Assembly (NCBI GenBank): GCA_949295325.1
Contig: CASFKG010000002.1
Location: 76,047-140,046, forward strand
DNA length: 64,000 nt
Source of the DNA: an uncultured bacterium
GTDB lineage: Bacteria; Bacillota_I; Bacilli_A; RFN20; CAG-826
Direction: 5' to 3'
The translations under genes were made by a program, and so were the position numbers. The first letter of the stretch is position 1; every line of letters starts with the position of its first letter. Below are positions 15,552 to 55,752 of this stretch, piece after piece. The notes under the pieces are model-generated. The model was not told the origin of the DNA. It saw nothing but the letters and a program-made list of their open reading frames with translations, and did no database searches.

Positions 15552-15590
15552 TAGTGCTTGTGCATATTTCTTTGTGCGATAATTGCAGAC

Positions 15591-18500: not shown

Positions 18501-21500
18501 ATACGGGTCTGTGCGACCAGCCAGTTGTTCATAAAAGACGGCGATTATCTGTTCCCCGGTTTCCTCGCGGATACTTTGGGAAAGTCCCTCGAGGGCACTT
18601 CGGTCACCCTGATAGAGGGTTCGTATTTCGATTATGGGACGCAGTCGTTTGCCGTCATCGAAGGCAACGAATACGGCTTACTTAAGGCCAACGTCCTTTC
18701 CCTCGACAATCCGGACGATTGGGTCGCCGAGTCCGCCGTCTTGGGCGACGTTCTCGAATCGGCCCAGAAACTAGGTGGACTCGAGAACCTCTCGATCTAC
18801 GAAATGGACCCAGACCTATTCGAAGAACTCATGTCCTCGGCCTCCTACTCGGAGGTTCTGGGAAATCTTCTTGTCCCCAACGTCTTTGCCATGGTGGAAG
18901 ACGATTTGGCCGCTGCGCTGGTGCAATACGGCGGAATCAGCGTCGAAAACGCCAACATCGCCTATGTCTATGACGGAACGCCCCAGGAAAGGGCGGCCGA
19001 AACCGTCCTCCTTTCCGATCTGCTGGCCGCCGTAACCGATCCGACGTACGGCCTGATGGACGAAGGCCAGGTGGCGAGTTCGGTTTCGCTCGCTAGCCTT
19101 TCGGGACGCCATACCCTTAAACCGATCCTCGACGCCTTGGCGGACAGCCGGGTCTTCAATTCATCCTACGTCGAAGGCACCGACACGGCCTTCGAATCGC
19201 TTTTGGCCAGCACGCTTTACGGAACCGGGCTCTACGGCGATGCCGTGACCGGCCAGGAGGTCCTCGAAAGGGTCCGGGAAGTGACGGACTGGAACTTCGA
19301 GAACGCCTCCATCGCCGATGCCCTGGATTCCATGAAGGAGATTCTCGGCGGCGGGACCGACTTGGGGAGCCTCGACTTCGCCTCTTATTTCAGCGGTACC
19401 GCGGCCGAGGTGGAAGCAAGGAAGAGCGATTTGGCCGCCCTGCTCGACAACATGGACCAAAGCCTCTTGCTCTCGCTCGCCATGAGAAGCCAGCTCGCCG
19501 GCATGGCCTCTTCCTTCGAGGTTCCGCTTGTCGAAGGCGGCTTGGCCACCGCCAACTTCGCCTACGAAAACGGGGAAGGCCGCTACGGGCACGAGGAAAT
19601 AATGAATTTCGTGGACGCATTGTCCATATTGGCCGGTCTAGGCGACGATCCGCTTTCCGGCGACATGAGATCCTATGTCGACGTAGCCAAGCTTTTGGCC
19701 CAGAGCCATATTTTCAACACGGTTAAGGACGGGCAGGAAAGGACCTTCTTCCAAAGCACGATGTACGCGATTATCGGTAACGAGGCCATATCTGCCTATC
19801 TTTGCCCGGTGGACGACGCGGGCCGCCCGACCAGTCCGAAGGCCGAGGGGTTCGCCACTTCCGGCGATTATATCGCCAACTTCATCTACAGCGTCAATTT
19901 CCCAAGCAGCGCCGATGGCGTCGCCACCCCCGACAACCAGGTCGAATTGGACAGGCAGCAGGGGCTGATAGATTCCTTGGGGGACGTCCTGCCTTCGATT
20001 TCCGCCTTCTTCGGGGCCGGCGATTTCTCTCCCTCTAGCATCGATACCGAGACCCTCTACGGGTTGCTTGACGCCATCAACGGCAGCGATTTGCTTTTCG
20101 AAATGGTGCCGAACATCCTCTCGTCCTATTTGACCGGCGACAACCTCGACATCGAAATCGAAGGCATAGACATCGCGTTGGCCAATCCCTATTTCTCCTA
20201 TTATTACGACGAATCCAGCGGGGTCCTCGATTTCGATAGCCCCGACTGGAGCCGCCATTATCCGGCCAGCGAAATCGAGAACATCGTGGACCTCATCTCT
20301 TATCTGCGCGATTTCCGGAACGTCCTTGGCACTATCGATTTCTCCTCGGTTTCGCCCATCGCTTTCCACGACGTGCTCATGCTTGCCCACGACTCCTACG
20401 TGTTCAACCTGGCCGGTCCGAACCAGCAGAACCTGAGCCATGCCCGCAACGCGATCGACCAACTGCCGAACAACCTGACCGTGTTCGAACAGCTGATGCT
20501 AAAGGTCTACGATGCCACCGCGATAGGATATTTCTCCTTCGACGTCCAGGAGGATGCCGTATTCCTGCTCTCCTTAAAGGACAATAACGGCAATCCGTTC
20601 CTGGGAAGCTATTCGGATCTTCTGTCCTTTGCCGCCCGGGAAGACGCCAAGGAGGTAGGTTCGAGGGCCAAACTCTATGCGAGGATAATCGAAGGGCGCG
20701 ACGGCGGCTTCGACTATGAGCGCGAAATCGCCGCCCTTACCATCGGAAGCCCGACCGAAGTCGGTTTCTTCGAAGCCATCCAGAACAGCGACCTGCTCGG
20801 CAGCGACAGCGACCTTTCCAACGTTTCCACGAGCTTCGAGAACCTTTCGCCCGACGATCTCGGCCTCTTGCTGCGGAGCCTCAACGAACTCGAACTGGTC
20901 GACCTTCCGGCCGCCTATCTGGCCGATTCGATGGTCAACGGCTTGCCGGACGAAAACTCCTCGTCGAGTTTCTCCGGGATGGGAATGCAAAGCTATTCCA
21001 GCTATTCCGTAAAAAGCGGTAGCAGCCTCTTCGGCGAAGGCCGCATCCTCTCTCTCGACATAAGCGAGGTCGACGAGACCCTCCTTGACGGCCTTACTTT
21101 CACATTGCACGGCAAGGACCGGGAAGGTACGGCGGCGAACGTTTCCGACTTACCCCATAGCGGCGGGCACTACGATTTCGGGGACCTGCTCCCTTACGGC
21201 CTAGAGGTCAGCGGCCTTCCGGAGGACTCGAATGCCGCGTTTACCTACACGGTCGACAGCTCGGACTACTTCTTCAGGGAAGAAAAGACCATTGCGGCGG
21301 CCGCGCAGCGTTACCGCGAAGGCGGCATAGAGACGATGGTCGAGATGCTCGACGCGCTCTATATCGACGGCGACGGCGACGGGACCGAGGACAGCTATTT
21401 CGCCTTCGACGCCTCCAGCCGGGAAGGCATCACCCAGGCCCTCGACATCGGCACCGCCACCATCTTGGAGTTCCTCGGATCCAAAGGCGGTTTCTACGTG

Positions 21501-22535
21501 ACCCCGTCCGGCGATTATACCGGCGGCGCCATTACCCTATATAACCTGCTTATCGTCTCCAGCGACCTGAGCGGCCTCGCCGATCTGCTACCCGGCATCG
21601 AGATCCCGGCATCCGCGAATGTCCCGCTAGGGGAAGCGGTAGTGTACGGCGGCATCCCCATGGGAGAAGACGGCCTTCCCGTCGAGGGAGCCGAGGGAAC
21701 CGCGACCGACGATCCGCTCGCAGCCATCGGGAACATCCTAAGCCTTCTTGAGTACAATAGCGGCTTCGCTGATGGCAGCGGCCACCATCCTACCTATGCC
21801 CAGGAAGGGAAGTGGCTCGACGAAAACATCGCGGGAATCGTGGCCTTCGAAGGCCTCTATTACGGGTTCGAAGCCGCGGCCATCGCGGATGCTCCGTCAT
21901 ACCTCTATTTGATGAACCTCCTGGATCAGGCGGATTCGCCTTACGGGGATTTCTATTCCTCCCTTTTCGGATCCGATTCCAATCTTGTTGCCGACAAACC
22001 GCTGTTCGGGGCGAACATGATCGCCAACTTGGCCGGCGAGATGACCGCGGGCTTCCGCGGCTATGCCCGCGAGGCCAGCGGCCTGCCTTTGTCCACATCC
22101 CGTCCCTACATCATCCAAAAGGTCGGCGCGGATCCGGCCGCCTTGGCGAGTTTGCCGGACAATCTCGCATTCGCCCTTGAAGACGGAGATTTCTTCAAAG
22201 GGGCGGACGTTGCCTTGCTCTGCCAGTCTGACGGCGGCCTCGCGGACCTGCTGAAGGTGATGGGGTCGTTGGTAAGCGGCGATCCGGTCGAGTCCATCAT
22301 AGACGGGTTCGCCGAACTGCAGCCCGATAGCCCGGATGCCTGGGGATTCGCCTACGAGGCCGCGGTGTCGCTTCTTGTCGGACCGCTGTTCGACGAAATG
22401 GCGCTTTCGGGATATCTCGATTCCAGTAGCCAAGCCAACATTCCCGACTTCATGGATTTCGATTCCAGGTTCCTTACCATCGGGGAAAACGGCCCGGAAA
22501 ACGTCTTCGCCTATCTTTCTGCCAATGTCCGCTAA
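15591..22535 (+). CDS. giant (~2314 aa) highly acidic membrane-anchored protein of unknown function
   Basis: Single uninterrupted ORF 15558..22535. The likely start is ATG 15591, 7 nt after the -10 (leaderless). The N-terminal ~230 aa contain 4-5 hydrophobic helices and a KRIRRNRKKMNKGR loop. The remaining >2000 aa are D/E/S/G/L-rich with isolated DxDxDG-like motifs (DTNNDGRPDAV; YIDGDGDGTEDSYF). No enzymatic or known adhesin domain was recognised. Confidence 0.7.
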   Translation: MGSLFRILADAVDVGSIVDILTTSLNVAFWAIVALLILAFLWGLLHGWRYGVYRLVSFAIWIAVFLICLEPLADFVGNFDLSGFGLPAINLAINGATVSVSWTTPFATIGTLVSEAMKALGTNLDPSELASYAISLATNSVKLVLLLVYGLLLLTLVNFVIWLFWHILFKWLTPKRIRRNRKKMNKGRIVNGLVQTAFVFVAGALVIYPLTSVVNTINQAVVRPDEETMEQIRADNGTYATVVDVLDAYDSSIFAQVFFNWSESEGMTFDAKLIDLLINSNYGDMSVSLLQELGSIASIAATALSTGVDLSGSQGEILSTLITANQTPEILRLLADNQLVSIALPFAFQIAVNIDEVSSYLLTDEGIAADSEDFSNALDSLADLYQGVLDSGTLEGLYIDDNGQMSFDLDYVFNLFNEETKADFDAFFDSIDDGKLALFENILDSFAYVQAVAADKQFGEDPNVLTIADFLPEATFVDTNNDGRPDAVSQDFKDIEWGSELRYVYDFVYEANSIDPDFAPALLSGLMASGGTGEVNMQPVIDFAVDNITDISDLFVGDLGDIDSETGHSKTEGETCLLDSSLINNAMPKMLSLLGTGINSGLFEDEEVVDMQPITDELEGATVAESMINYKRELSSLLSVMEEFLVGHPSASALLKDFEEHPGVYIDPDNVFQGMEGDIYDGAIDALRVMDSSLIASNILPAVFSKFLDGDGNFVNNLLGPEALPLDFGVENLGGELADLLAAVKELDPYIPVLTGLGSSSFSSSQIKDLLSVEIGEGSDAKPLLGYLLDLFANSKILNPVDEVDGVTVINTNYYCLMKTVADAAFGEGSFRLSIGDFQDASFAESENDAFLRVLGEIVDTGLLDNLGDVASGEITRVLRVLNAIPEEDFVSLFGSLGDSLVLKSCISDFLDENLTAALFGTDSGISFGNVTDWVEEGRSLKALIRFASEVGDLSNIDFFNSDPYAVEGIIRVCATSQLFIKDGDYLFPGFLADTLGKSLEGTSVTLIEGSYFDYGTQSFAVIEGNEYGLLKANVLSLDNPDDWVAESAVLGDVLESAQKLGGLENLSIYEMDPDLFEELMSSASYSEVLGNLLVPNVFAMVEDDLAAALVQYGGISVENANIAYVYDGTPQERAAETVLLSDLLAAVTDPTYGLMDEGQVASSVSLASLSGRHTLKPILDALADSRVFNSSYVEGTDTAFESLLASTLYGTGLYGDAVTGQEVLERVREVTDWNFENASIADALDSMKEILGGGTDLGSLDFASYFSGTAAEVEARKSDLAALLDNMDQSLLLSLAMRSQLAGMASSFEVPLVEGGLATANFAYENGEGRYGHEEIMNFVDALSILAGLGDDPLSGDMRSYVDVAKLLAQSHIFNTVKDGQERTFFQSTMYAIIGNEAISAYLCPVDDAGRPTSPKAEGFATSGDYIANFIYSVNFPSSADGVATPDNQVELDRQQGLIDSLGDVLPSISAFFGAGDFSPSSIDTETLYGLLDAINGSDLLFEMVPNILSSYLTGDNLDIEIEGIDIALANPYFSYYYDESSGVLDFDSPDWSRHYPASEIENIVDLISYLRDFRNVLGTIDFSSVSPIAFHDVLMLAHDSYVFNLAGPNQQNLSHARNAIDQLPNNLTVFEQLMLKVYDATAIGYFSFDVQEDAVFLLSLKDNNGNPFLGSYSDLLSFAAREDAKEVGSRAKLYARIIEGRDGGFDYEREIAALTIGSPTEVGFFEAIQNSDLLGSDSDLSNVSTSFENLSPDDLGLLLRSLNELELVDLPAAYLADSMVNGLPDENSSSSFSGMGMQSYSSYSVKSGSSLFGEGRILSLDISEVDETLLDGLTFTLHGKDREGTAANVSDLPHSGGHYDFGDLLPYGLEVSGLPEDSNAAFTYTVDSSDYFFREEKTIAAAAQRYREGGIETMVEMLDALYIDGDGDGTEDSYFAFDASSREGITQALDIGTATILEFLGSKGGFYVTPSGDYTGGAITLYNLLIVSSDLSGLADLLPGIEIPASANVPLGEAVVYGGIPMGEDGLPVEGAEGTATDDPLAAIGNILSLLEYNSGFADGSGHHPTYAQEGKWLDENIAGIVAFEGLYYGFEAAAIADAPSYLYLMNLLDQADSPYGDFYSSLFGSDSNLVADKPLFGANMIANLAGEMTAGFRGYAREASGLPLSTSRPYIIQKVGADPAALASLPDNLAFALEDGDFFKGADVALLCQSDGGLADLLKVMGSLVSGDPVESIIDGFAELQPDSPDAWGFAYEAAVSLLVGPLFDEMALSGYLDSSSQANIPDFMDFDSRFLTIGENGPENVFAYLSANVR

Positions 22536-45501: not shown

Positions 45502-46281
45502 TTATAGCACGGGCGCGCTTTCGGAATGGATCCCGAAGGCCTTGACTTTGTCCATGGCAATCGCTAGGAAGGCGCTGTTCCCGGTTGCCTTGTAACGCAA
45601 GAGGGCCCAGTAGTACCAGAGGGCATCGAGAAAGGGGGAGAGGGAGAGGACCTCGGAAGTCTCCTCCTTGCTCGGGGTTCTCCCGAAATAGCCGGTCAGG
45701 AGAGCCTTGGACAAGTCGGGATCCTCTATTCCGTTTTCGCTTAGGACGCTGTTCAGATCGAAAAGCGGGAGATTGGTTCCCGCGAACTCCAAGTCGAGGA
45801 GGACGATTCTTCCGCCGGGGGTTTCGAGTACGTTCCCCTCCACCAGGTCGTTATGGCATGGACGGGTTCCGTATTTGGCCAGAAGGCTTTCGAATACGGA
45901 GACGGCCGCATCGACTTTTCCTTTGTCCAAGTAAGGCCCTTCTGCATGGTTTTCATAGTACTTGAGGCGCCTAACTGCGTAGAATCCGCCTATGTCGCCT
46001 GATTTATATCCATGCAGTTTCCGTATCGTCCGGCCGAGTTTTTCCAATTGTCCGGCGGTGGGGGCCGAAAGGAATTTCCTTCCGTCTATATATTCCTCCA
46101 CGTAGTCCCCGTTATCTTCGTAGCGGTAAACCCGCGGGAATATATCGCCTTCCCCCAAGGCATATGTTTTCCTTTCGTTTATAGCCGAAAAGAAATCCGG
46201 GTCGCTATCCAGTTTCTTCCGGTAGACGAAGCCTTTGTCCCTGTATATCAGGTTATTCAATCCGCCGCCCAGTTCTTCCAT
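45502..46281 (-). CDS. phosphotransferase (APH/choline-kinase-like) family protein
   Basis: Brenner motif HNDLVEGNVL and DLEFA(G) from the catalytic/activation loops of the aminoglycoside/choline kinase fold. Confidence 0.6.
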   Translation of the reverse strand: MEELGGGLNNLIYRDKGFVYRKKLDSDPDFFSAINERKTYALGEGDIFPRVYRYEDNGDYVEEYIDGRKFLSAPTAGQLEKLGRTIRKLHGYKSGDIGGFYAVRRLKYYENHAEGPYLDKGKVDAAVSVFESLLAKYGTRPCHNDLVEGNVLETPGGRIVLLDLEFAGTNLPLFDLNSVLSENGIEDPDLSKALLTGYFGRTPSKEETSEVLSLSPFLDALWYYWALLRYKATGNSAFLAIAMDKVKAFGIHSESAPVL

Positions 46282-47684
46282 CAGCGTTTGACGCCCGCTT
46301 CGTGGAAGGCCTTCAGGTATTCGTCCGGTATCTTCTTAACGAAAAGGGATTTGTATTTTCCCACGATCGCCTGTCCCGGGACGTTTCCTTTCCTGACGTC
46401 GCCCCTAAGGGCAACCATGACTTCGCCTTCGTCCCTTCCGGAGGCATAGACCGCCAGGCAGGCGGCGAATTCGGTCTCCTCCTCCGTGGGGGTTTCCTTC
46501 CTGATTACCACGTGCGGTCCGGTCGAGTCCTTGACATGGAACCACAGGAACCGCGGGTTCTTGCAGAAAGCAAAGGTCAGGGCGTCGTTTTCCCTGGCCG
46601 TGTGGCCGTAGTAGGCCTTGAGGGCGCCCATTGCCACGAGCCTGGGAAGAACCAGTCGCGATTTGCTTTTCTTCTTTTTTCTCTCATCCGCCGGCTCGCC
46701 GAGCATTTCCTCGAGGGTTTCCTCGTCGAGGTCTTCGTAAACGGCAAGCCGCGAAGCCACCTGTTCGAGTTCCCTTTCGGCTTTTTCCCGGTTGACCTTT
46801 ATATTGGCGAGGCTCGTTTTCGCCTTCTTGGCACGCCGGTAGTACCTTTCGGCGGCGGTGCTGATCTTTTCCTTCGGATCGAACGGGTATTCCCTTCCTT
46901 CGTAGGAGAGGATTCCCTTTTCGGCATCGAGTCCTTCCCCGACGTAGAAGGCATCGCCGATTTCCCCGTCGCCGATGTGGCAGAGGGCTTCCTTTTCGTC
47001 TTTGTCGAAGGCCGAAAGCTTCCTTATCAGGAGCTTCTCCCTTCTTTTGTCTTCTTCGATGAGGCTGCCGTATCTGTCCCGGCGGCGTTCCGAATCGATT
47101 TCCCTTTCCTTTTCCGCGGCCTGCTTTTCGTATAGTCCGAATTCGCTTGGGTCGACGGGCCCGCCTTCGGCAAACGGGCATTCGGGCGGCACGTAGGAAA
47201 GGCCCCGTATAAGCGGCCTTTCCGAATCGAGGGGAGACGGTCTATAGGCCGTGAGTATTTTCCCGTCTTCGTTCAAAAGGACGAGATTGGCCCTTTTCGG
47301 GAGTCCTTCGTAGACCAGCGTCCTTTCGATTTCGCGGTAGGCGGCGTCGTTGACGAGGCAATCGAAGGCCAGAACCCTGTCGTGGCCGAGCCGCCTCACG
47401 GATTTGACGAACGCGTTTGGCAGTTCCTTCTTGACGACATCGAGGAAAGGGGATTCGAAACCCCGGCATTTCCTGGCGTTTTTCGAAAGATAGACCATCG
47501 GCGATACCGCGTCCAAGGCGAAGACAAGGCGCGAGTACCCAGAACCCGAGACGGCGAAACAAAGGGCCTTTTTGGCGTAGAGCATCGGCCTCGCGAGGTG
47601 GTGGCCGCCGAGGGCGGCATCTAGTTTCTTCGACAGCAAATCGTAAAAAGGCGCGCGGAAATTCACCGCTAGACTATAGCACAT
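46281..47684 (-). CDS. NFACT-family protein (RqcH/FbpA-like, short form)
   Basis: N-terminal NFACT-N-like region, plus a C-terminal DUF814/NFACT-R motif (NPRFLWFHVKDSTGPHVVIRKE…EFAACLAVYAS). Confidence 0.55.
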   Translation of the reverse strand: MCYSLAVNFRAPFYDLLSKKLDAALGGHHLARPMLYAKKALCFAVSGSGYSRLVFALDAVSPMVYLSKNARKCRGFESPFLDVVKKELPNAFVKSVRRLGHDRVLAFDCLVNDAAYREIERTLVYEGLPKRANLVLLNEDGKILTAYRPSPLDSERPLIRGLSYVPPECPFAEGGPVDPSEFGLYEKQAAEKEREIDSERRRDRYGSLIEEDKRREKLLIRKLSAFDKDEKEALCHIGDGEIGDAFYVGEGLDAEKGILSYEGREYPFDPKEKISTAAERYYRRAKKAKTSLANIKVNREKAERELEQVASRLAVYEDLDEETLEEMLGEPADERKKKKSKSRLVLPRLVAMGALKAYYGHTARENDALTFAFCKNPRFLWFHVKDSTGPHVVIRKETPTEEETEFAACLAVYASGRDEGEVMVALRGDVRKGNVPGQAIVGKYKSLFVKKIPDEYLKAFHEAGVKR

Positions 47685-47714
47685 TTGCCTTAAGGCCCCA
47701 AAAAGGCCTATAAT
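47685..47714 (+). promoter_or_regulatory. sigma70-type promoter of gmk (TTGCCT-18 nt-TATAAT), leaderless-type
   Basis: -35 at 47685-47690 and -10 at 47709-47714. The ATG lies 11 nt downstream with no RBS. Confidence 0.5.
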
Positions 47715-47725
47715 CCCATAAATAG

Positions 47726-48313
47726 ATGGCTAAGCGGGGACTTTTGATAATACTGAGCGGACCCAGCGGGGTAGGCAAGGGGACCGTCAGGATGGAACTG
47801 ATGAAGGACGAAAGCCTGAAGCTCTACTATTCGGTGTCGATGACGACCCGCAAGATGAGGCCCGGCGAAGTCGAAGGCCGCGAGTATTATTTCGTGAGCG
47901 AAGACGAATTCAAAAAGAACGTCGAGGAAGGGAACCTTCTGGAGTGGGCGAAGTTCGTCGGGAATTACTACGGCACCCCGAAATCCATCGTCGAGAAGAT
48001 GAGGGACGAAGGAAAGAACGTCCTTTTGGAAATAGAGGTAAGCGGCACCCTGCAGGTTCTCGGCAAGCTCCGGGACGACAAGGGGCTGATTTCCATTTTC
48101 CTCGTGCCCCCGAGCATCGAGGACCTCGAGAACCGCATAAGAGGCCGCAAGACCGAAACCGAGGAAATGATCGCCGAAAGGCTAGAGAAAGCCCGGGGCG
48201 AGCTCCGCTGCGGGCACTATTACCAGCACGAAGTCGTCAACGACGACTTGGCACGGGCCGTCGGGGAGATAGCCTCCCTCATCAAGGCCCGCATGGCCGA
48301 TGACGATCGTTGA
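47726..48313 (+). CDS. gmk: guanylate kinase
   Basis: GPSGVGKGT P-loop, 195 aa. Confidence 0.9.
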   Translation: MAKRGLLIILSGPSGVGKGTVRMELMKDESLKLYYSVSMTTRKMRPGEVEGREYYFVSEDEFKKNVEEGNLLEWAKFVGNYYGTPKSIVEKMRDEGKNVLLEIEVSGTLQVLGKLRDDKGLISIFLVPPSIEDLENRIRGRKTETEEMIAERLEKARGELRCGHYYQHEVVNDDLARAVGEIASLIKARMADDDR

Positions 48314-50495
48314 GGTCCTGACCGAAATAGGGAAAAGGGGCCTGATGCGCCCCTTTAGCTATCTTTACGACGGAAAGCAGCCGATCGGGCCCCGCTTCCG
48401 CGTCATCGTCCCTTTCGGCGGCCGCGAGATCATGGGATTCGTCACCGGTGTCCGCCAGACCGGCTTTTCAAAAGAAGAACTCGAAAGCCAGCTTGGGCAC
48501 GAACTCCGCTTCGTGTCGTCGGTCATCGACCGGGAGCCGCTGCTCGGGGACGAACTCATGGAACTGGCCAAAAGGGTAAGCGACTATTACATGTCGCCCC
48601 TCGTGACCGTTCTTCAGGCCATGCTCCCGAAGTCGCTTTCACCCCGCAGATCCTCCCTCAAGGCCCCGAAGATCGCCTATGAAAAATGGGTCAGGACGGC
48701 AAAGGAAGAGGTTCCATCCCTTACCCCAAGGCAAAGGGAATGCCTGAGGCTTGTCTCACGCAACGGGGAAGTGAGGAAAAAGGAAGCCGGCACGCCATCG
48801 GTCGTCAAGACATTGGTAGACAAAGGATATCTACGCGAGTTCAGCAGGGAGCGCCCCCGTTTCCATATACCCGAAGCCGAAAGGGAACAGGCCCACGAAC
48901 CGACGGTCGACCAGCAGAAGGCCATAGAGGAGATACTCTCTTCCGGGAAGAAGACCGTCTTGCTGCAAGGCGTCACCGGTTCCGGGAAAACGGAAGTCTA
49001 CCTTAGGCTGAGCGAGCATTTCCTCCGGGAAGGCAAGAACGTTTTGATGCTGGTCCCCGAAATATCGCTTACGCCGGTCATGGTCGAATATTTCTCGAGG
49101 CGTTTCGGCAGCATCATCGCGATTCTCCATAGCGGCCTTACGCCCGCCGAGAAATACGACGAGTACCGGCGCATAAAAAGGGGAGAGGCCCGAATCGTCG
49201 TCGGGGCCAGAAGCGCCGTATTCGCCCCCCTCGGCAACATAGGTCTGATCGTCATCGACGAGGAACACGTCGATAGCTACAAGCAGGACACGCCCCCTTA
49301 TTACCACGCCCGCGAAGTGGCGAAGATGCGTTCCGAGATATCCGGGGCGAAGGTCGTTTTGGGCTCCGCCACCCCGAGTCTGGAAACCAAGGCAAGAGCC
49401 GTAAAAGGGGTATACGGCTTTGCCGAGCTCAAAAGGAGGATTTCGAGCCAAGGCCTTCCCTCGACCACGATAGTCGACATGCGTGAGAAGTCCTCGCGCG
49501 GCAGCGAAAAGCACATTTTCAGCGCGGAACTCATAGCAAAGATCAGGGAAAAGCTCTCCAGGCACGAGCAGATAATCCTCTTGTTGAACAGAAGGGGCTA
49601 TTCCTCTTTCATAACCTGCGAGTCCTGCGGCTATATCTTCGACTGCCCCAACTGCGGCGGCCACCTTACCTACCATAGGGAAGACGGGATGCTCAAATGC
49701 CACCACTGTGACTTCCTCATGGATTTCCCGGCCCGCTGCCCCGAATGCGGCTCGGCCTCCTTGGCCCGCGTGGGTTTCGGGACGGAGCGCGTCATGAAGG
49801 AAATAGGGGTGCTTTTCCCGGACGCCAAGGCGGAAAGACTCGATAGCGACTCCGGGAAGGTCGCCAAAGCCGCCTCCGGCATAACCAGGAGGTTCCACGA
49901 CCACGGGTTCGACATACTCGTGGGAACGCAGATGATTGCCAAGGGGCACGATTTTCCGGACGTCACTTTGGTCGGAGACGTTCTGGCCGACATCGGGTTG
50001 GGCCTGCCGAGTTACCGTTCCTCGGAAAGGACCTTCAACCTCATCGCCCAGGCGGTCGGGAGGGCCGGGAGGGCCGAAAAGAGGGGAGAGGCGATAATCC
50101 AGACCTACAACCCGAACCACTACGCGATAGTCTTCGGGGCCAGGCAGGATTACGAAGGCTTCTTCGGCCGGGAGATGCTCTCGCGCCGCTCCTACGGCTA
50201 TCCCCCATACCGGAACCTCATAACCCTGACCTTCCTTTCCGAGAAGGAGGAGAAGGCCGCCGAATTCGCCGCCGATTTCCGGGAAATGGCCCTGAAGCAG
50301 GGCTTCGCGGACGTCGAAATCGTCGGTCCCGGTACTCCTTTCCTTGCCTTCTTCGCCGGGCGCTACCGCCGGACGTTGCTTTTCAAATTCAAAAAGAGTG
50401 AGGATTTGCGAAGATTTCTCTATTCGGAAACGCAAAGGCTTTCCGGAAAATCGGGGGTTGAAATAGAAATAGAAGTTGACCCCTTAGATTCCTAG
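48300..50495 (+). CDS. priA: primosomal protein N' (replication restart helicase PriA)
   Basis: Walker A (GVTGSGKTEVY), DEEH box (VIDEEHVDSY), and a Zn-binding Cys cluster (CESCGY…CPNCGG…CHHCDF…CPECG). Confidence 0.9.
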   Translation: MTIVEVLTEIGKRGLMRPFSYLYDGKQPIGPRFRVIVPFGGREIMGFVTGVRQTGFSKEELESQLGHELRFVSSVIDREPLLGDELMELAKRVSDYYMSPLVTVLQAMLPKSLSPRRSSLKAPKIAYEKWVRTAKEEVPSLTPRQRECLRLVSRNGEVRKKEAGTPSVVKTLVDKGYLREFSRERPRFHIPEAEREQAHEPTVDQQKAIEEILSSGKKTVLLQGVTGSGKTEVYLRLSEHFLREGKNVLMLVPEISLTPVMVEYFSRRFGSIIAILHSGLTPAEKYDEYRRIKRGEARIVVGARSAVFAPLGNIGLIVIDEEHVDSYKQDTPPYYHAREVAKMRSEISGAKVVLGSATPSLETKARAVKGVYGFAELKRRISSQGLPSTTIVDMREKSSRGSEKHIFSAELIAKIREKLSRHEQIILLLNRRGYSSFITCESCGYIFDCPNCGGHLTYHREDGMLKCHHCDFLMDFPARCPECGSASLARVGFGTERVMKEIGVLFPDAKAERLDSDSGKVAKAASGITRRFHDHGFDILVGTQMIAKGHDFPDVTLVGDVLADIGLGLPSYRSSERTFNLIAQAVGRAGRAEKRGEAIIQTYNPNHYAIVFGARQDYEGFFGREMLSRRSYGYPPYRNLITLTFLSEKEEKAAEFAADFREMALKQGFADVEIVGPGTPFLAFFAGRYRRTLLFKFKKSEDLRRFLYSETQRLSGKSGVEIEIEVDPLDS

Positions 50496-50496
50496 T

Positions 50497-50515
50497 CTTT
50501 GTGATATACTATCAC
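50497..50515 (+). promoter_or_regulatory. 19-bp palindrome TTGTGATA-TAC-TATCACAA embedding a TATACT -10
   Basis: Perfect 8-3-8 inverted repeat immediately after the priA stop. It is 18 nt upstream of ATG 50533. Confidence 0.4.
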
Positions 50516-50532
50516 AACGTGAGGACGTCAAA

Positions 50533-51090
50533 ATGGTAACCCTGACCTTCCTTGGACTCGACCAATTCGTGGTCGGCCACTATAGCAAAGACCATACCAA
50601 GGCCTTGGCAAATCTATTCGAAGTAGAAGAGGACGATCTCGACTTCGTGGCACCGAACAACATGGTGTTCCATAACGGCGTCGAACAGACCTCCTGGAAC
50701 GTGACCGTGAAGGTCTTCGCCCCGGAGGAATGCCAGCCGCTAGAGGGAAAAGTCGCCAAGTACCTGCTAGATACCGTGAAGGATTTCGCGATCAACGTCC
50801 GGGTCGTGTTCGAGTATTTCCACGAACACCGCATCCACGAATCCCTGAATCCCGATTACCCGCGGTTCATAACCGAGAGCAATATCGTCAGCGACGAGTA
50901 CGACCCCGGATTCGACGACGAGGACGGGGACATGCCCGACCCGAGGGACAGGGCGGATCTCGACCCCAATGACGAAAACCAGCTGTTCCTCGGCAATGCC
51001 TTCGAAGGTTTCGAGGAGAAACTCGAAAAGGCCCGTGCCGAAAAACTAGAACAAGAGAACCTTGATAAGGAGAAGAATAGCGCCAAGTAG
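50533..51090 (+). CDS. hypothetical acidic protein
   Basis: 185 aa, with a C-terminal half very rich in D/E (DEYDPGFDDEDGDMPDPRDRADLDPNDE…). It occupies the slot where def/fmt sit in many Firmicutes. Confidence 0.5.
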   Translation: MVTLTFLGLDQFVVGHYSKDHTKALANLFEVEEDDLDFVAPNNMVFHNGVEQTSWNVTVKVFAPEECQPLEGKVAKYLLDTVKDFAINVRVVFEYFHEHRIHESLNPDYPRFITESNIVSDEYDPGFDDEDGDMPDPRDRADLDPNDENQLFLGNAFEGFEEKLEKARAEKLEQENLDKEKNSAK

Positions 51091-51108
51091 CGCAGGAGGT
51101 AATCCACA

Positions 51109-52437
51109 ATGCAGGAACTCGATTTAGCCGCCAAGATACTAGACGACATCATCGACGAAGGTACCCCGTTCGGGGAAGCCCTGAAGAAGGTATTCCAGCC
51201 TAACCAGGAACTAAGGCCCCTGAGGGCGACCGTTAGCGGTCTTGTGGGGTGCGAACTCAGGCACCACCTGATGTTCGAATACATAATGGAAGCCGACGAA
51301 TACAAGGACTGGGAGATGCCGGCCAAACGGCTGGCCTACCTTTCGCTTGCCGACCTCTATTACTTCAAGCGCATCTCGCCCGAGGACATCAAGGCGCATC
51401 TCGCCCAGGCCATCGGCGAAGAGAAAGCCGCCGCCCTCGAACCGCTTTTCGCCAAGGCCGGCAATCCCAAGGAGTACCTGCCCGAACTGCCGCGCGATCT
51501 CCAGCTCTCGCTCCGCTTCAACGTGCCGGAATGGGTTTTGAAGGTCTGGCGCCACTTCGGGAACGGGAAGATGTACAACATCGCCAAGGCCAACAGCCGC
51601 CCGGCCAAGTTCTACGTCCGCGTCCGCACTTCCATGATTTCGGCGGAAGCCATCCTCTCGAGCGGCGAGGATTTCGAAAAGACCCCGGTGGAAGACGTCC
51701 TCCTCTACAAAGGGAAGACCCCGCTTAGGAAGGTCGAACTATACCGCAAGGGGATGATATTCGACATCAAGCCCGCGACCAAGTTCATCAGCGATACCTT
51801 CAAGATCGAAGACCCCAAGCAGGGGCTTCTCTACCTGAGTGCCCGCGACCATTCCATGATCGAGGAATGGATCGAGACCTACGGGCCGCGCGTCGCCATG
51901 AACATCGGCGTGAAGGACGTTAGCAAATATCCCGACGTCACCCGCCTGATAAAGGCCGAAAACCTGAAAAACGTCAATTTCTTCGGCGCGGAGCCCGACG
52001 CGATGGAAGCCGCGATCAGCAAGCCGCAGGACCTGGTCTTCTGCGTCCCCGCTTCCTCCTCGTTCGACAATATCCGCGAAACCCCGGATTTCCTTCTGCA
52101 TTTCTCGACCGAAGAGCTCGACCAGGCCTACGACGAACAGAAGAAGGCCCTCGAAGGCTGCTCGAAGTACGTGGCCGAGGGCGGAACTTTGGTCTATATC
52201 ATCTACACCATCTCCCGCAAGGAAGGGCATAACACCGTGAAGACTTTCCTCGAGAACCATCCGGAATTCCAGCTGGTCGAAGAGAAGCAGGGCTTCCCCT
52301 TCGAAGAGCTCGATACTTCCTATTACTATTGCGCCATGAAGAAGGATTCTTCCTTGGCGAAGGCCGAACCCCCGCTCATCGATCCCGCGATGATCCCCAG
52401 CGAAGAGGCGCCGCAGGCCCAGGCCGAAGGGAAATAA
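51109..52437 (+). CDS. RsmB/Sun-like protein with NusB-like N-domain; catalytic motifs degenerate (probable pseudo-methyltransferase)
   Basis: The C-terminal block GGTLVYIIYTISRKEG…FLENHPEF aligns to RsmB GGxLVYsTCS…FL but has TIS in place of TCS. Motif IV reads CVPASSS rather than DAPCSG. No DxCAAPGGKT SAM motif was found. Confidence 0.55.
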   Translation: MQELDLAAKILDDIIDEGTPFGEALKKVFQPNQELRPLRATVSGLVGCELRHHLMFEYIMEADEYKDWEMPAKRLAYLSLADLYYFKRISPEDIKAHLAQAIGEEKAAALEPLFAKAGNPKEYLPELPRDLQLSLRFNVPEWVLKVWRHFGNGKMYNIAKANSRPAKFYVRVRTSMISAEAILSSGEDFEKTPVEDVLLYKGKTPLRKVELYRKGMIFDIKPATKFISDTFKIEDPKQGLLYLSARDHSMIEEWIETYGPRVAMNIGVKDVSKYPDVTRLIKAENLKNVNFFGAEPDAMEAAISKPQDLVFCVPASSSFDNIRETPDFLLHFSTEELDQAYDEQKKALEGCSKYVAEGGTLVYIIYTISRKEGHNTVKTFLENHPEFQLVEEKQGFPFEELDTSYYYCAMKKDSSLAKAEPPLIDPAMIPSEEAPQAQAEGK

Positions 52438-52438
52438 G

Positions 52439-53473
52439 ATGCGCCCCTTGCTCTGCCTTACGCGGGAGGAGCTTGGGGAAGCGCTTGTAAGTCTCGGAAA
52501 GTCCCGCTACGTCGGCGACCAGATAGCCGATTGGGTTTACAGAAAGGGAGTATACGACTACTCCCGGATGACCAATCTCTCCTTGGCTTATAGGGAAGAG
52601 CTTCCTTCCCTTTTTCCTATACGCCTTCCGAAGGTATTCGCCAGGCAGGATGCCAAGGACGGGACCGTCAAGCTCCTTCTCGAAATGGAGGACGGCTCGA
52701 AGGTCGAAACCGTCTTGATGCGCTACGACTACGGCAATGCCGTCTGCGTTTCCAGCGAGGTAGGCTGTTCCATGGGGTGCGCTTTCTGCGCCTCGGGCCT
52801 GCTCAAGAAGGAAAGGGGCCTCACCGCCGGCGAAATGGTGGGGCAGGTCCTTTGCATAAACGAAATACTCAAGGAGACCCGGGAGCGCACGACCCACGTC
52901 GTGGTGATGGGAACCGGGGAGCCTTTCGACAACTACGACGAGGTAATGCGCTTCATAAGGATCCTAAACGACCCGAAATGCCTTGGTCTCGGGGCCCGGC
53001 ACATCACCGTATCGACCGCCGGGCTGGTGCCGGGGATACTCAAGTACGGGAAGGAAGGACTCCAAGTCAACCTTGCGATTTCCCTGCACGCCCCGACGCA
53101 GGCCAAACGCGAAAAGCTCATGCCGGTCGCCCGCTTCTTCCCGCTCGACAAGCTGATGGAGGCGGTGAAGCAATACATCTCCGATTCCGGGCGAAGGGTG
53201 ACTTTCGAATACATAATGCTAAGCGGCATGAACGATACGCCGCAGGACGCCAAGGAACTTTCCGAATTGCTCCGCGGCATTCTATGCTATGTCAACCTCA
53301 TCCCCTATAACCCGGTCAAGGAAAAGCCTTTTAAAAGGAGCCCTCGCCGGGACGTGGACGCCTTCCGGGACTATCTCGTCAAGCACGGTATAAACGTGAC
53401 CGTCCGCAAGGAGTTCGGCACCGGGATCGACGCCGCCTGCGGACAACTCAGGGCCAAGGAGCACGGGCTATGA
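52439..53473 (+). CDS. rlmN: 23S rRNA/tRNA adenosine-C2 methyltransferase RlmN (radical SAM)
   Basis: CxxxCxxC radical-SAM motif (GCSMGCAFCASG), 344 aa, conserved position upstream of stp/stk. Confidence 0.9.
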   Translation: MRPLLCLTREELGEALVSLGKSRYVGDQIADWVYRKGVYDYSRMTNLSLAYREELPSLFPIRLPKVFARQDAKDGTVKLLLEMEDGSKVETVLMRYDYGNAVCVSSEVGCSMGCAFCASGLLKKERGLTAGEMVGQVLCINEILKETRERTTHVVVMGTGEPFDNYDEVMRFIRILNDPKCLGLGARHITVSTAGLVPGILKYGKEGLQVNLAISLHAPTQAKREKLMPVARFFPLDKLMEAVKQYISDSGRRVTFEYIMLSGMNDTPQDAKELSELLRGILCYVNLIPYNPVKEKPFKRSPRRDVDAFRDYLVKHGINVTVRKEFGTGIDAACGQLRAKEHGL

Positions 53474-54222
53474 AACGGATGCCGGTAGGAACCTATGCCA
53501 GCCTTACCGACATCGGGCGGGTCAGGCTGGCCAACGAAGACCAGGCCCTCGCCGCGGTCAATAGCCACGGCGAGGTCCTTCTTGCCGTCTTAGACGGCAT
53601 GGGCGGCAACAACAAGGGGGACTTGGCCTCGAGCCTGGCCAAAGACTTGATTTTGGATGCCTTCTATAGGAAAAAAGCGACGCCGTTAGCGATAATGGCC
53701 CGTTTTTGGCTTGGCCATGCCTTGGCATCTGCCAACAAAAAGGTCTATACCAAGTCGGAATCAAGCCCGCTTTACAAAGGGATGGGCACTACTTTTTCCG
53801 GCGTCCTTTTGATCGGGAAGAAGGCCGTCGTCGCCAATGTCGGGGACTCCCGCTGCTATCTTTATGGCGAAGGCGGACTGAAGCGCCTTACCGAAGACCA
53901 GACCTACGTTTCCTTTCTCCTTAGGACCGGGAAGCTGAAGCCCGAGCAGGCTGCCGTCCATCCCGACCGCCACGTCTTGCTTAACGCCCTGGGCATATAC
54001 CCCTCCCTTTCGCTATCCTATAAGACGATATGCTACGAAGGGGAGAGCATCCTCTGCTGTACCGACGGGCTTTATAATTCGTTAAAGGAGAGCGATATAG
54101 AAGCCGTTTTGCGGCTCGATTCGCGGGCCGACCAGAAGGCCGGCATGCTTTGCCGCATGGCCAGCGAATTCGGGGGAAGCGACAACGTCGGCGTTTCCTA
54201 TTGGGAGGCCATCCGTGATTAA
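53470..54222 (+). CDS. stp: PP2C-family Ser/Thr protein phosphatase
   Basis: LAVLDGMGG motif and a GDSR motif, 250 aa. It is coupled to the kinase gene. Confidence 0.85.
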   Translation: MKRMPVGTYASLTDIGRVRLANEDQALAAVNSHGEVLLAVLDGMGGNNKGDLASSLAKDLILDAFYRKKATPLAIMARFWLGHALASANKKVYTKSESSPLYKGMGTTFSGVLLIGKKAVVANVGDSRCYLYGEGGLKRLTEDQTYVSFLLRTGKLKPEQAAVHPDRHVLLNALGIYPSLSLSYKTICYEGESILCCTDGLYNSLKESDIEAVLRLDSRADQKAGMLCRMASEFGGSDNVGVSYWEAIRD

Positions 54223-55093
54223 GGTCGGGGACAAGATAGACGGGCGCTACCGCGTGGTGAGCCGCATCGCCCGGGGCGGCATGGCCGACGTCTACGAAGC
54301 CGTCGACGTCTTCAGCCACAAGCCGGTCAGCCTCAAGGTCATGCGGGAGGACATGATGGATAGCCCCAGCAACGTCGCCCGCTTTTCCCGCGAATGCGTC
54401 GCCGCGGCTTCGCTCGACAACCCGAACATAGTGAAGGTCTACGGGCAGGGCATCGCCGACGGCCGTCCCTACATGGCCAACGAATACATAAAAGGCCAGA
54501 CCCTGAGGGACACCTTGAATTTCTCGACTACCCACTCCCTTTTGCCGCGCGAGGCCTGTTCCGTCATGCTCCAGCTGACCAGCGGCGTCGAATACATCCA
54601 CGAGCACGGCATAATCCACCGCGACATCAAGCCGGACAACCTTTTCTACCTGCCGGACGGTTCGATAAAGATAAGCGACTTCGGCATCTCGACGATGATC
54701 GGGGAAAAGAACCGCGGGGACGGCGTGAGCGGGACCATCTACTACACCGCCCCGGAAATAATTCTGGGTAAGCAGTGCGGCGTCGCGAGCGACATCTATT
54801 CCATGGGCATCGTCTTCTACGAACTGCTGACCGGATCGGTCCCCTTCGACGCGCCTACCCCGGAAGAAGTCGCCCTGATGCACGTGAAGCGCCATTTCCC
54901 GGAACCGAGCAAACTGAACCCCCTGGTCGGAAAGCCCATCGACATGATCGTCATGAAGGCCACGAGGAAACGTCCCGAGGAGCGCTATCATAGCGCCAAG
55001 GAAATGCAAGACGCCATCGAGACCGCGCTCAAATCGCCCAACTCCTACAAGGAAAAAAGAGGCTTCCTCAGCCGCCTCTTCGGATTCAAATGA
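54215..55093 (+). CDS. Hanks-type Ser/Thr protein kinase (catalytic domain only, no TM/PASTA)
   Basis: Hanks-kinase motifs: GGMADVYEA, VSLKV, HRDIKPDN, DFG and APE. Only 292 aa, with no hydrophobic segment. Confidence 0.85.
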   Translation: MIKVGDKIDGRYRVVSRIARGGMADVYEAVDVFSHKPVSLKVMREDMMDSPSNVARFSRECVAAASLDNPNIVKVYGQGIADGRPYMANEYIKGQTLRDTLNFSTTHSLLPREACSVMLQLTSGVEYIHEHGIIHRDIKPDNLFYLPDGSIKISDFGISTMIGEKNRGDGVSGTIYYTAPEIILGKQCGVASDIYSMGIVFYELLTGSVPFDAPTPEEVALMHVKRHFPEPSKLNPLVGKPIDMIVMKATRKRPEERYHSAKEMQDAIETALKSPNSYKEKRGFLSRLFGFK

Positions 55094-55752
55094 GAAAGTC
55101 CTTCGTCGCCCCTTCATTGCTTTCGGCCGATCCTAAGGATCTACGGGGTGCCGCGCTTTTGGCGAGGGACTCCGGCTGCCGGTACATCCATTTCGACGTC
55201 ATGGACGGGAAGTTCGTGGAAAACAAATCCTTTTCGCCGGAGGACTTCCAAGAAATAACCGGGATCGAGGGACTTGTCTACGACGTCCATCTAATGGCGG
55301 AGGACCCGCTTGCGCTAGCCAAGGAATACGCAAAACTGGGAGCCGATATCGTCACCTTCCATTTGGAAGCCGCCAAAGACCCGGAATACCTAAAGAAGGC
55401 GGCAAGGGAGCTGCGCGGTTTGGGCATCAGGCCCGGCATCAGCATAAAGCCCCGTACCCCGGTGGGCGCCCTCCGGCCCTACCTCGGGGAATTCGGCCTC
55501 GTTTTGCTGATGTCGGTCGAACCGGGGAAGGGCGGACAGTCCTTCATCCCCGAATCGCTTCCGAGGGTCTCCGAACTAAGGAAGCTCATAGGGGAGAGGG
55601 ACATCCTCCTCGAAATCGACGGCGGCATAAACGACGTCACCGGCAAGGCGGCCTTCGAAAGGGGGGCCGACATACTCGTGGCCGGATCCTATCTCTACGG
55701 ACACCCGGATTTTTCTAGACGCGTGGAATCGCTTTGCTTTTATGCTTTATAG
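55090..55752 (+). CDS. rpe: ribulose-phosphate 3-epimerase
   Basis: SLLSAD…HFDVMDGKFV…VHLM motifs, 220 aa. Confidence 0.9.
   Translation: MRKSFVAPSLLSADPKDLRGAALLARDSGCRYIHFDVMDGKFVENKSFSPEDFQEITGIEGLVYDVHLMAEDPLALAKEYAKLGADIVTFHLEAAKDPEYLKKAARELRGLGIRPGISIKPRTPVGALRPYLGEFGLVLLMSVEPGKGGQSFIPESLPRVSELRKLIGERDILLEIDGGINDVTGKAAFERGADILVAGSYLYGHPDFSRRVESLCFYAL

Follow-up and report, generated by a model that had tools for sequence, protein, structure and literature searches.

Why would a bacterium keep an rRNA methyltransferase that has lost the residues for methylation? The question is raised by an open reading frame (ORF) in a 64,000-nucleotide stretch of DNA, hereafter the window, from an uncultured bacterium of the GTDB lineage Bacillota_I, Bacilli_A, RFN20, CAG-826 (GenBank assembly GCA_949295325.1, contig CASFKG010000002.1, positions 76,047 to 140,046 of the forward strand). 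The ORF starts with ATG and encodes 442 amino acids (aa) plus a stop codon (51109-52437, plus strand); we designate it rsmB*. A reading of the DNA made without database searches (the sequence-only reading) had described it as a catalytically degenerate relative of RsmB, the enzyme that forms 5-methylcytosine at position 967 (m5C967) of 16S rRNA, retained in a conserved priA-rlmN cluster, and profile-profile alignment, motif register, and synteny all bore this out. Our preferred interpretation, to which we give a probability of roughly 60%, is that RsmB* is a pseudo-enzyme kept for a noncatalytic binding role, probably on the nascent 30S subunit or 16S rRNA.

The rsmB* ORF encodes a real, remote but full-length homologue of RsmB. 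It scored beneath every curated family threshold tested: the NCBIfam RsmB profile PRK14902 gave 78 bits (aa 5-394) against a cutoff of 319, TIGR00563 gave 31.7 against 269, and the Pfam matches were 18.9 against 27 for PF22458 (aa 140-184) and 23 against a gathering score of 27 for PF01189. The last match spanned aa 319-393 only, corresponding to positions 92-166 of the 199-position profile, so that the half of the domain that binds S-adenosylmethionine (SAM) went unrecognized. A hidden Markov model (HMM) of canonical RsmB gave RsmB* 59.9 bits, compared with 630 to 710 bits for true RsmBs. Membership in the RsmF/YebU type was not indicated either, since the NCBIfam profile search gave weak partial matches only. 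Profile-profile alignment with hhalign, in which the query profile was a 51-sequence family alignment, matched RsmB* to canonical RsmB with a probability of 99.4% (E = 5e-21), pairing query residues 5-412 with residues 9-428 of the Escherichia coli protein.

The AlphaFold2 (AF2) model of RsmB* reached a predicted local distance difference test score (pLDDT) of 91.4 and a predicted template modeling score of 0.85. Its best PDB match by Foldseek was E. coli Fmu/RsmB, 1sqf (E = 2.8e-22; template modeling [TM] scores, 0.75/0.77; 17% identity; 437 columns), followed by PH0851 of Pyrococcus horikoshii and then by RsmF, Nop2, and NSUN proteins. Model and hhalign together revealed the three-domain architecture of RsmB, with a helical N-domain, a central ferredoxin-like domain, and a Rossmann domain. 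A structural match of this extent means that RsmB* keeps both its helical N-domain and the length of RsmB, just as had been claimed from the letters. In architecture and length RsmB* thus resembles the E. coli 16S m5C967 methyltransferase (Fmu/Sun; 1SQF/1SQG), with which it also shares the landmarks P-x-W, R-x-P-D, GGxLxY, the Thr/Ser after the nucleophile position, the Glu of EEN, and a C-terminal Q-x-x-P; what sets the two apart, besides their low identity, is the deleted motif I loop and the loss of both catalytic cysteines.

The catalytic positions were assigned using E. coli RsmB from NC_000913 as the reference, in which C325 was confirmed in LLDAPCS and C375 in YATCS. HMMER, MAFFT, and profile-profile hhalign agreed on a register that is ungapped at motifs IV and VI. 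An hhalign run against the single E. coli sequence placed a one-residue gap in motif IV and paired P314 with P324; this arrangement was rejected in favor of the ungapped register of the three methods. The resulting substitutions relative to E. coli are D277 to Asn, D322 to Val, P324 to Ala, C325 to Ser, and C375 to Tyr. The sequence-only reading had set TIS against the TCS of motif VI and CVPASSS against the DAPCSG of motif IV. Both strings are present (aa 367-369 and 312-318, respectively), and it was correct that neither supplies a catalytic cysteine, but TIS lies two residues out of register, its Thr (T367) corresponding to the Ser/Thr after the nucleophile, and the pairing of CVPASSS with DAPCSG is off by one residue. 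The SAM block DxCAAPGGKT is indeed unrecognizable, being reduced to LYLSA--RDH with two residues deleted.

These losses are not peculiar to one protein. We scored conservation in 130 full-length cluster representatives (the broad family) and in a set of 111 sequences of the RFN20 type. At position 366, which takes the place of the nucleophile, no cysteine occurs in either set (0/111 and 0/130), and at position 316, that of the motif IV cysteine, which RsmB requires for β-elimination and release of the product, Cys is absent from the RFN20-type set (0/111) and present in 9 of the 130 broad-family sequences. Those nine, in which Cys aligns to Cys325, read P-x-C-S. A few distant members (P0218 and P0230; P0147, P0151, P0163, P0188, and others) carry a Cys 2 to 3 residues past the lost nucleophile, within T-F/L-C-R-N-E-T. 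Such downstream and motif IV cysteines may be relics or independent changes. Cysteines at shifted positions and sequencing error had been named in advance as ways in which the reading of a dead enzyme might fail; we found no Cys of RsmB* at either catalytic position, the substitutions are family-wide, and the exact protein recurs on independent ENA and Logan assemblies.

Judged from its sequence, RsmB* would therefore be a pseudo-enzyme, predicted to be incapable of canonical SAM binding and of covalent m5C catalysis. It is highly improbable, in our judgment, that RsmB* is a still-active RNA methyltransferase with unconventional cofactor binding or chemistry, for example cysteine-free N- or O-methylation. 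Such an enzyme might be suspected because the Rossmann fold is intact and modeled with high confidence, because conservation within the protein is strongest in the former active-site loops, and because the motif III position is still acidic (E295, with Asp in roughly half of the RFN20-type members). However, the Gly-rich loop is two residues shorter and retains no glycine, Asn and Val replace D277 and D322, the domain is least conserved in its SAM half, and the generic SAM-methyltransferase profiles PF13847 and PF01728, which match canonical RsmBs, gave no match to RsmB*.

We next compared gene order. In canonical clusters (Lachnospiraceae and another Firmicute; loci L086 and L087), the order is priA-def-fmt-Zn peptidase-rsmB-rlmN-PP2C-PASTA kinase-rsgA, whereas the window and 80 related loci read gmk-priA-DUF1904-like-RsmB*-rlmN-PP2C-kinase-rpe. 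The segment from priA through the DUF1904-like gene, RsmB*, rlmN, and PP2C to the kinase was found in 80 of 80 RFN20-type loci and also in 4 of 4 distant loci (L082, L084, L090, and L091), which have low GC content and belong to much more distant subfamilies. Because rsmB* holds the exact position that rsmB has in canonical Firmicutes clusters, it is a positional orthologue of rsmB and not a paralogue, as the sequence-only reading had termed it. The likeness extends to the Bacillus subtilis yloM type of cluster (priA-def-fmt-rsmB-rlmN-prpC-prkC-rsgA), where the position is identical from the priA side to rlmN-PP2C-kinase; in the RsmB* lineage, the genes for Def, Fmt, and the Zn peptidase have given way to one with a tautomerase fold, PASTA repeats are missing from the kinase, and the cluster has no rsgA. 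The three replaced genes are missing at 48300-53473 of the window and in loci L002-L081, and tblastn with E. coli Def and Fmt detected neither protein in the window nor in any of the 80 loci (±10 kb). In RFN20-type loci rsgA is not part of the cluster; it is present in canonical clusters and in the three distant loci that extend that far (L082, L084, and L090), L091 ending just past the kinase. The rlmN start codon lies one base past the rsmB* stop, suggesting that the two genes are translationally coupled.

Neither the window nor some 1.4 Mb of flanking sequence from 80 related species yielded a second copy. When six-frame ORFs of the window and these loci were searched with the canonical-RsmB HMM, only the syntenic dead copy was recovered, at no more than about 80 bits, and tblastn with E. 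coli RsmB and with a relative's intact RsmF-like protein found no second rsmB or rsmF in the window or the 80 loci. A low-GC relative that also carries a dead RsmB does encode an intact RsmF-like m5C methyltransferase (L082:17044-18324, minus strand), located upstream of rimP-nusA, with RsmF_N, RsmB-F, and PUA domains and the motifs DMCASPGGKS, DAPCSGSG, and STCS; a counterpart was not found in the window. Thus, these lineages do not exclude m5C chemistry altogether.

A word-indexed search returned 193 homologues with 44 to 99% identity, all from metagenome-assembled genomes (MAGs) of uncultured organisms named "Bacilli bacterium" or "Tenericutes bacterium." With each GTDB species represented by one genome, a scan detected relatives with an intact reading frame in 130 species, including two Candidatus Enteromonas MAGs. 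Candidatus Enteromonas belongs to order RFN20, family CAG-826 (PMC8035907), and peptidoglycan is predicted to be absent from CAG-826 (PMC10868615). When 1.84 billion cluster representatives were searched exhaustively with a profile, 186 clusters were recovered at E ≤ 1e-30 and 963 at E ≤ 1e-10, and with clusters defined at 50% identity the family comprises at least 186 of them. The catalytic loss is ancient and common to at least 186 clusters in related uncultured Bacilli.

The gene is, moreover, under strong purifying selection. Ratios of nonsynonymous to synonymous substitution (dN/dS; Nei-Gojobori method, 40 close species pairs) were 0.02 to 0.11, the range also seen in those pairs for priA, rlmN, PP2C, and the kinase. 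This indicates a retained, repurposed function and agrees with the earlier suggestion that the dead copy was repurposed. It is practically inconceivable that rsmB* is a decaying pseudogene or the product of sequencing or assembly errors; scores under all curated family thresholds might point that way, but the frame is intact in 130 species, a strong Shine-Dalgarno sequence precedes the gene, and the model is confident (pLDDT of 91). Both explanations were rejected on the basis of dN/dS and the identical protein in independent assemblies.

The pattern of conservation suggests which parts of the protein have been maintained. There are 41 invariant columns in the 51-sequence alignment. Across the 130 broad-family representatives, the Rossmann domain has its lowest mean identity, 0.32, in the SAM half (aa 233-306, β1-β3) and its highest, 0.51, in the half that once served substrate binding and catalysis (aa 307-412, β4-β7). 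Conservation peaks in the former substrate cleft, that is, in the β4 and β5 loops, with T367 and E372 at 100%, together with P326 and D/E327. Nearly universal residues are N138, P140, W142, P314, S/T317, P326, D/E327, G359, Y363, T367, K371, E372, and F380 (P140 in 98% and W142 in 86% of the broad family). Many of them also occur in canonical RsmB and appear to be structural. The RFN20-type proteins also have invariants of their own, namely, LVGCELRHH, R136, K145, H149, R171, R207, K225, N288, N290, F319-D320, and H331. All this would be consistent with a protein in which scaffold and cleft are maintained, the chemistry is gone, and the surfaces are remodeled.

How, then, could a dead RsmB be useful? 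We propose that the rsmB orthologue of these uncultured, genome-reduced Bacilli would have become a pseudo-enzyme with its three-domain architecture kept, and that RsmB* would work by binding the nascent 30S subunit or 16S rRNA instead of methylating it. As a chaperone or checkpoint, it might fill the assembly role proposed for E. coli RsmB, minus the methyl transfer. This binding role is supported by the RsmB architecture, the conserved cleft, the coupling to rlmN in an operon for translation and ribosome functions, and precedents; the basic central domain (isoelectric point [pI], 9.9) was likewise counted in its favor. In E. coli, 17S pre-rRNA builds up in a ΔrsmB strain, and the target of RsmB is an early intermediate of the 30S subunit (PMC7056703). 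RlmB and RlmL stimulate the assembly of 50S subunits even when catalytically dead (PMC11194073). Yeast Nop2 (NOL1/NOP2/Sun superfamily), RlmB(E198A), RlmL(N309A), and KsgA/Dim1 all have methylation-independent roles, in which ribosome biogenesis is supported by the protein itself and not by the methylation (PMC4510066, PMC11194073). Those proteins, however, are competent in nature and their dead forms are engineered, whereas the dead state of RsmB* is naturally fixed throughout a clade and its assembly role is a proposal. From the fold, the operon context, and the precedents, we infer that RsmB* binds RNA or the ribosome, and 16S m5C967 is presumably missing from these organisms.

The classical Mollicutes offer an instructive comparison. 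Genome-reduced and placed in the same part of Bacilli, the Pneumoniae, Hominis, and AAP groups dispense with m5C967, and where RsmB is not needed the gene is lost outright (PMC4014445). The RsmB* clade, by contrast, keeps a full-length, selected, noncatalytic version. That a dead copy is retained in similarly reduced genomes, while the Mollicutes delete rsmB, argues for a second function.

Several points weigh against the binding role on the 30S subunit or 16S rRNA. Evidence for RNA or ribosome binding is indirect. Among positions conserved in canonical RsmB, as defined by a small comparison set of 15 sequences, mostly from Clostridia, the RFN20-type family keeps 17 of 104: 2 of 28 in the N-domain, 4 of 18 in the central domain, 1 of 25 in the SAM/catalytic regions, and 10 of 33 elsewhere in the methyltransferase domain. 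Hence most canonical residues are replaced beyond the catalytic motifs as well (the canonical Q-D-x-S-S, for instance, now reads E-K-P-A-T), so that any binding of 16S rRNA would occur through a largely remodeled surface, and a different binding partner is possible. Besides, the whole protein is acidic (pI, 5.2). Finally, a second intact rsmB could still lie beyond the window and the approximately 1.4 Mb of loci searched.

The same counts bear on the sequence-only suggestion that RsmB* might act as an NusB-like transcription antitermination factor through its N-domain, which we regard as very unlikely. In structure, the helical N-domain corresponds to the NusB-like domain of RsmB and is thus of the NusB-like type, but the Pfam NusB profile (PF01029) was undetected in RsmB* even at E ≤ 1. 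Moreover, the N-domain is among the least conserved regions (mean identity of 0.33 across the broad family), keeps the very few canonical positions given above, and is fused to a better-conserved methyltransferase-like body, the C-terminal half of which is the best-conserved part of the protein and would be unneeded for antitermination.

A different possibility emerges from the gene directly upstream. The DUF1904-like protein has a sub-threshold PF08921 match, and its family numbers at least 629 members, all named "hypothetical" and encoded in MAGs of the same sort as those with RsmB*. Its first approximately 100 residues are modeled by AF2 as a tautomerase-superfamily fold, for which the best Foldseek match in the PDB was the DUF1904 structure 4m1a, followed by cis-CaaD and MIF; the N-terminal Pro-1 is missing. 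After the fold come an acidic disordered linker, a conserved (L/V)(F/Y)xGN(A/I)FExF motif, and a C-terminal helix, and in low-GC relatives the tail is Cys/His-rich. The gene occupies the place of def-fmt in canonical clusters and lies directly upstream of rsmB* in each of the 79 RFN20-type loci that extend there, the remaining one (L038) starting within rsmB* itself, as well as in all four distant loci. This uncharacterized tautomerase-fold gene is thus a conserved companion of rsmB*.

RsmB* and the DUF1904-like protein might accordingly form a two-protein module with a new function and a new partner, whose target is not helix 31 (h31) of 16S rRNA and could be another RNA, a protein, or a small ligand in the remodeled cleft. 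We consider this rather unlikely. In its favor are the constant adjacency, the short conserved C-terminal motif, which past its acidic linker looks like a docking peptide, and the replacement of most RNA-facing canonical residues together with the appearance of new invariants (LVGCELRHH, F319-D320, H331, N288, and N290). On the other hand, adjacency by itself is no proof of interaction, the operon is otherwise related to translation and the ribosome (rlmN, and rsgA in relatives), and the lineage-specific invariants are not kept across the broad family. A more elaborate conjecture, to which we attach little weight, is that in the ancestor of several uncultured Bacilli orders such a module replaced def-fmt beside rsmB and acts, without methyl transfer, on the P-site region of the 30S subunit (h31) or on translation initiation. 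If true, it would amount to a natural separation-of-function allele exposing a methylation-independent job of RsmB.

If RsmB* is indeed retained for noncatalytic binding, the finding has broader implications. Bacteria usually either keep an rRNA methyltransferase intact or lose its gene, whereas here a dead version is fixed across a large radiation with genomes of about 1 to 1.6 Mb. That the dead RsmB is as constrained as priA or rlmN argues for a selectable function apart from m5C967. A methylation-independent function of RsmB has so far only been hinted at in E. coli, by the 17S accumulation in ΔrsmB cells, and the RsmB* family provides ready-made separation-of-function sequences. Our literature search, with subscription papers outside its coverage, found no described family of naturally dead RsmB.

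The family also constitutes an annotation trap. In JGI/IMG, the dead proteins (P0014, P0015, P0016, and others) are labeled "16S rRNA (cytosine967-C5)-methyltransferase," "C967 or C1407 C5-methylase," or RsmB/RsmF family, while NCBI calls them hypothetical. The functional JGI/IMG label is probably wrong, and conclusions on rRNA modification drawn from it for RFN20-like gut and rumen bacteria would be mistaken. Organism names call for separate caution: the MAG bins of L018, L022, L023, L026, L029, L030, L034, L036, L037, L042, and L064 bear implausible names (Escherichia coli, Bacteroides uniformis, Faecalibacterium prausnitzii, Roseburia hominis, and others), and these odd names on RFN20-type "cleanbin" records look like mislabeling.

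The features of rsmB* and its surroundings are listed in Table 1. Past rlmN lie the genes for PP2C phosphatase and for a Ser/Thr kinase of 292 aa that has neither PASTA repeats nor a transmembrane part (54215-55752 region), the latter directly followed by rpe; the genes from gmk to rpe abut or overlap. Promoter-consensus sites are no more numerous in the window than in shuffled sequence, and the site upstream of gmk is a candidate start of a gmk-priA-DUF1904-rsmB*-rlmN-PP2C-kinase-rpe operon. When the window was scanned with Rfam, rRNA genes were not detected, so that position 967 is not represented there.

Table 1. Coordinates of rsmB* domains, motifs, signals, and neighboring genes (window positions unless a locus is named)
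Feature	Position	Strand	Remarks
All-helical N-domain, aa 1-125	51109..51483	+	Equivalent of RsmB NusB-like domain; AF2 helices H2-115; aligned to E. coli 9-129
Lineage-specific motif LVGCELRHH, aa 45-53	GCELRHH at 51247-51267	+	In N-domain; invariant residues
Central ferredoxin-like domain, aa 126-232	51484..51804	+	Basic (pI 9.9); retained N-x-P-E-W, aa 138-142
Class I methyltransferase-like Rossmann domain, aa 233-412	51805..52344	+	AF2 strands β1-β7; without catalytic or cofactor motifs
C-terminal tail, aa 413-442	52345..52434	+	Low confidence, poorly conserved; pLDDT <50 for aa 428-442; mean identity 0.07
Motif I remnant LYLSARDH vs DLCAAPGGKT	51829..51852	+	LYLSA--RDH; P257 and G258 deleted, no glycine left
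N265 at motif II Asp (E. coli D277)	51901..51903	+	Asn in ≥90% of RFN20-type members
V313-P314-A315-S316 at motif IV D322-A-P324-C325	52045..52056	+	HMMER, MAFFT, hhalign
I365-Y366-T367 at motif VI T374-C375-S376	52201..52209	+	Nucleophile Cys375 replaced by Tyr366
Shine-Dalgarno AGGAGG	51094..51099	+	9 nt before ATG of rsmB*; read directly from sequence; strong
Promoter-like site TTGCCT-18-TATAAT	47685..47714	+	Upstream of gmk; consensus scan only
gmk	47726-48313		Start of neighbor series
priA	48300-50495		After gmk
DUF1904-like gene, 185 aa	50533..51090	+	Directly upstream of rsmB*
rlmN, radical SAM 23S rRNA/tRNA methyltransferase	52439..53473	+	Apparently intact; Pfam RlmN_N and Radical_SAM; start 1 nt after RsmB* stop
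DUF1904-like gene in distant loci	L082:9441-9968, L084:9438-9974, L090:9543-9998, L091:2229-2795		

Elsewhere in the window, three long ORFs gave no Pfam match at E ≤ 1e-4. The largest (15558-22535, plus strand; 2325 aa) has GC contents of 0.58/0.39/0.73 at codon positions 1/2/3, as in normal coding sequence, and N-terminal hydrophobic segments; it probably encodes a giant membrane or surface protein, to which no family was assigned. The others are an 807-aa ORF with a lipoprotein-like N-terminus (10192-12615, plus strand) and a 686-aa ORF (3423-5483, minus strand). Divergent from gmk lies an NFACT/RqcH-like gene (46281-47684, minus strand), which is short (467 aa), contains NFACT_N and NFACT-R_2 only, and keeps its position in related loci.

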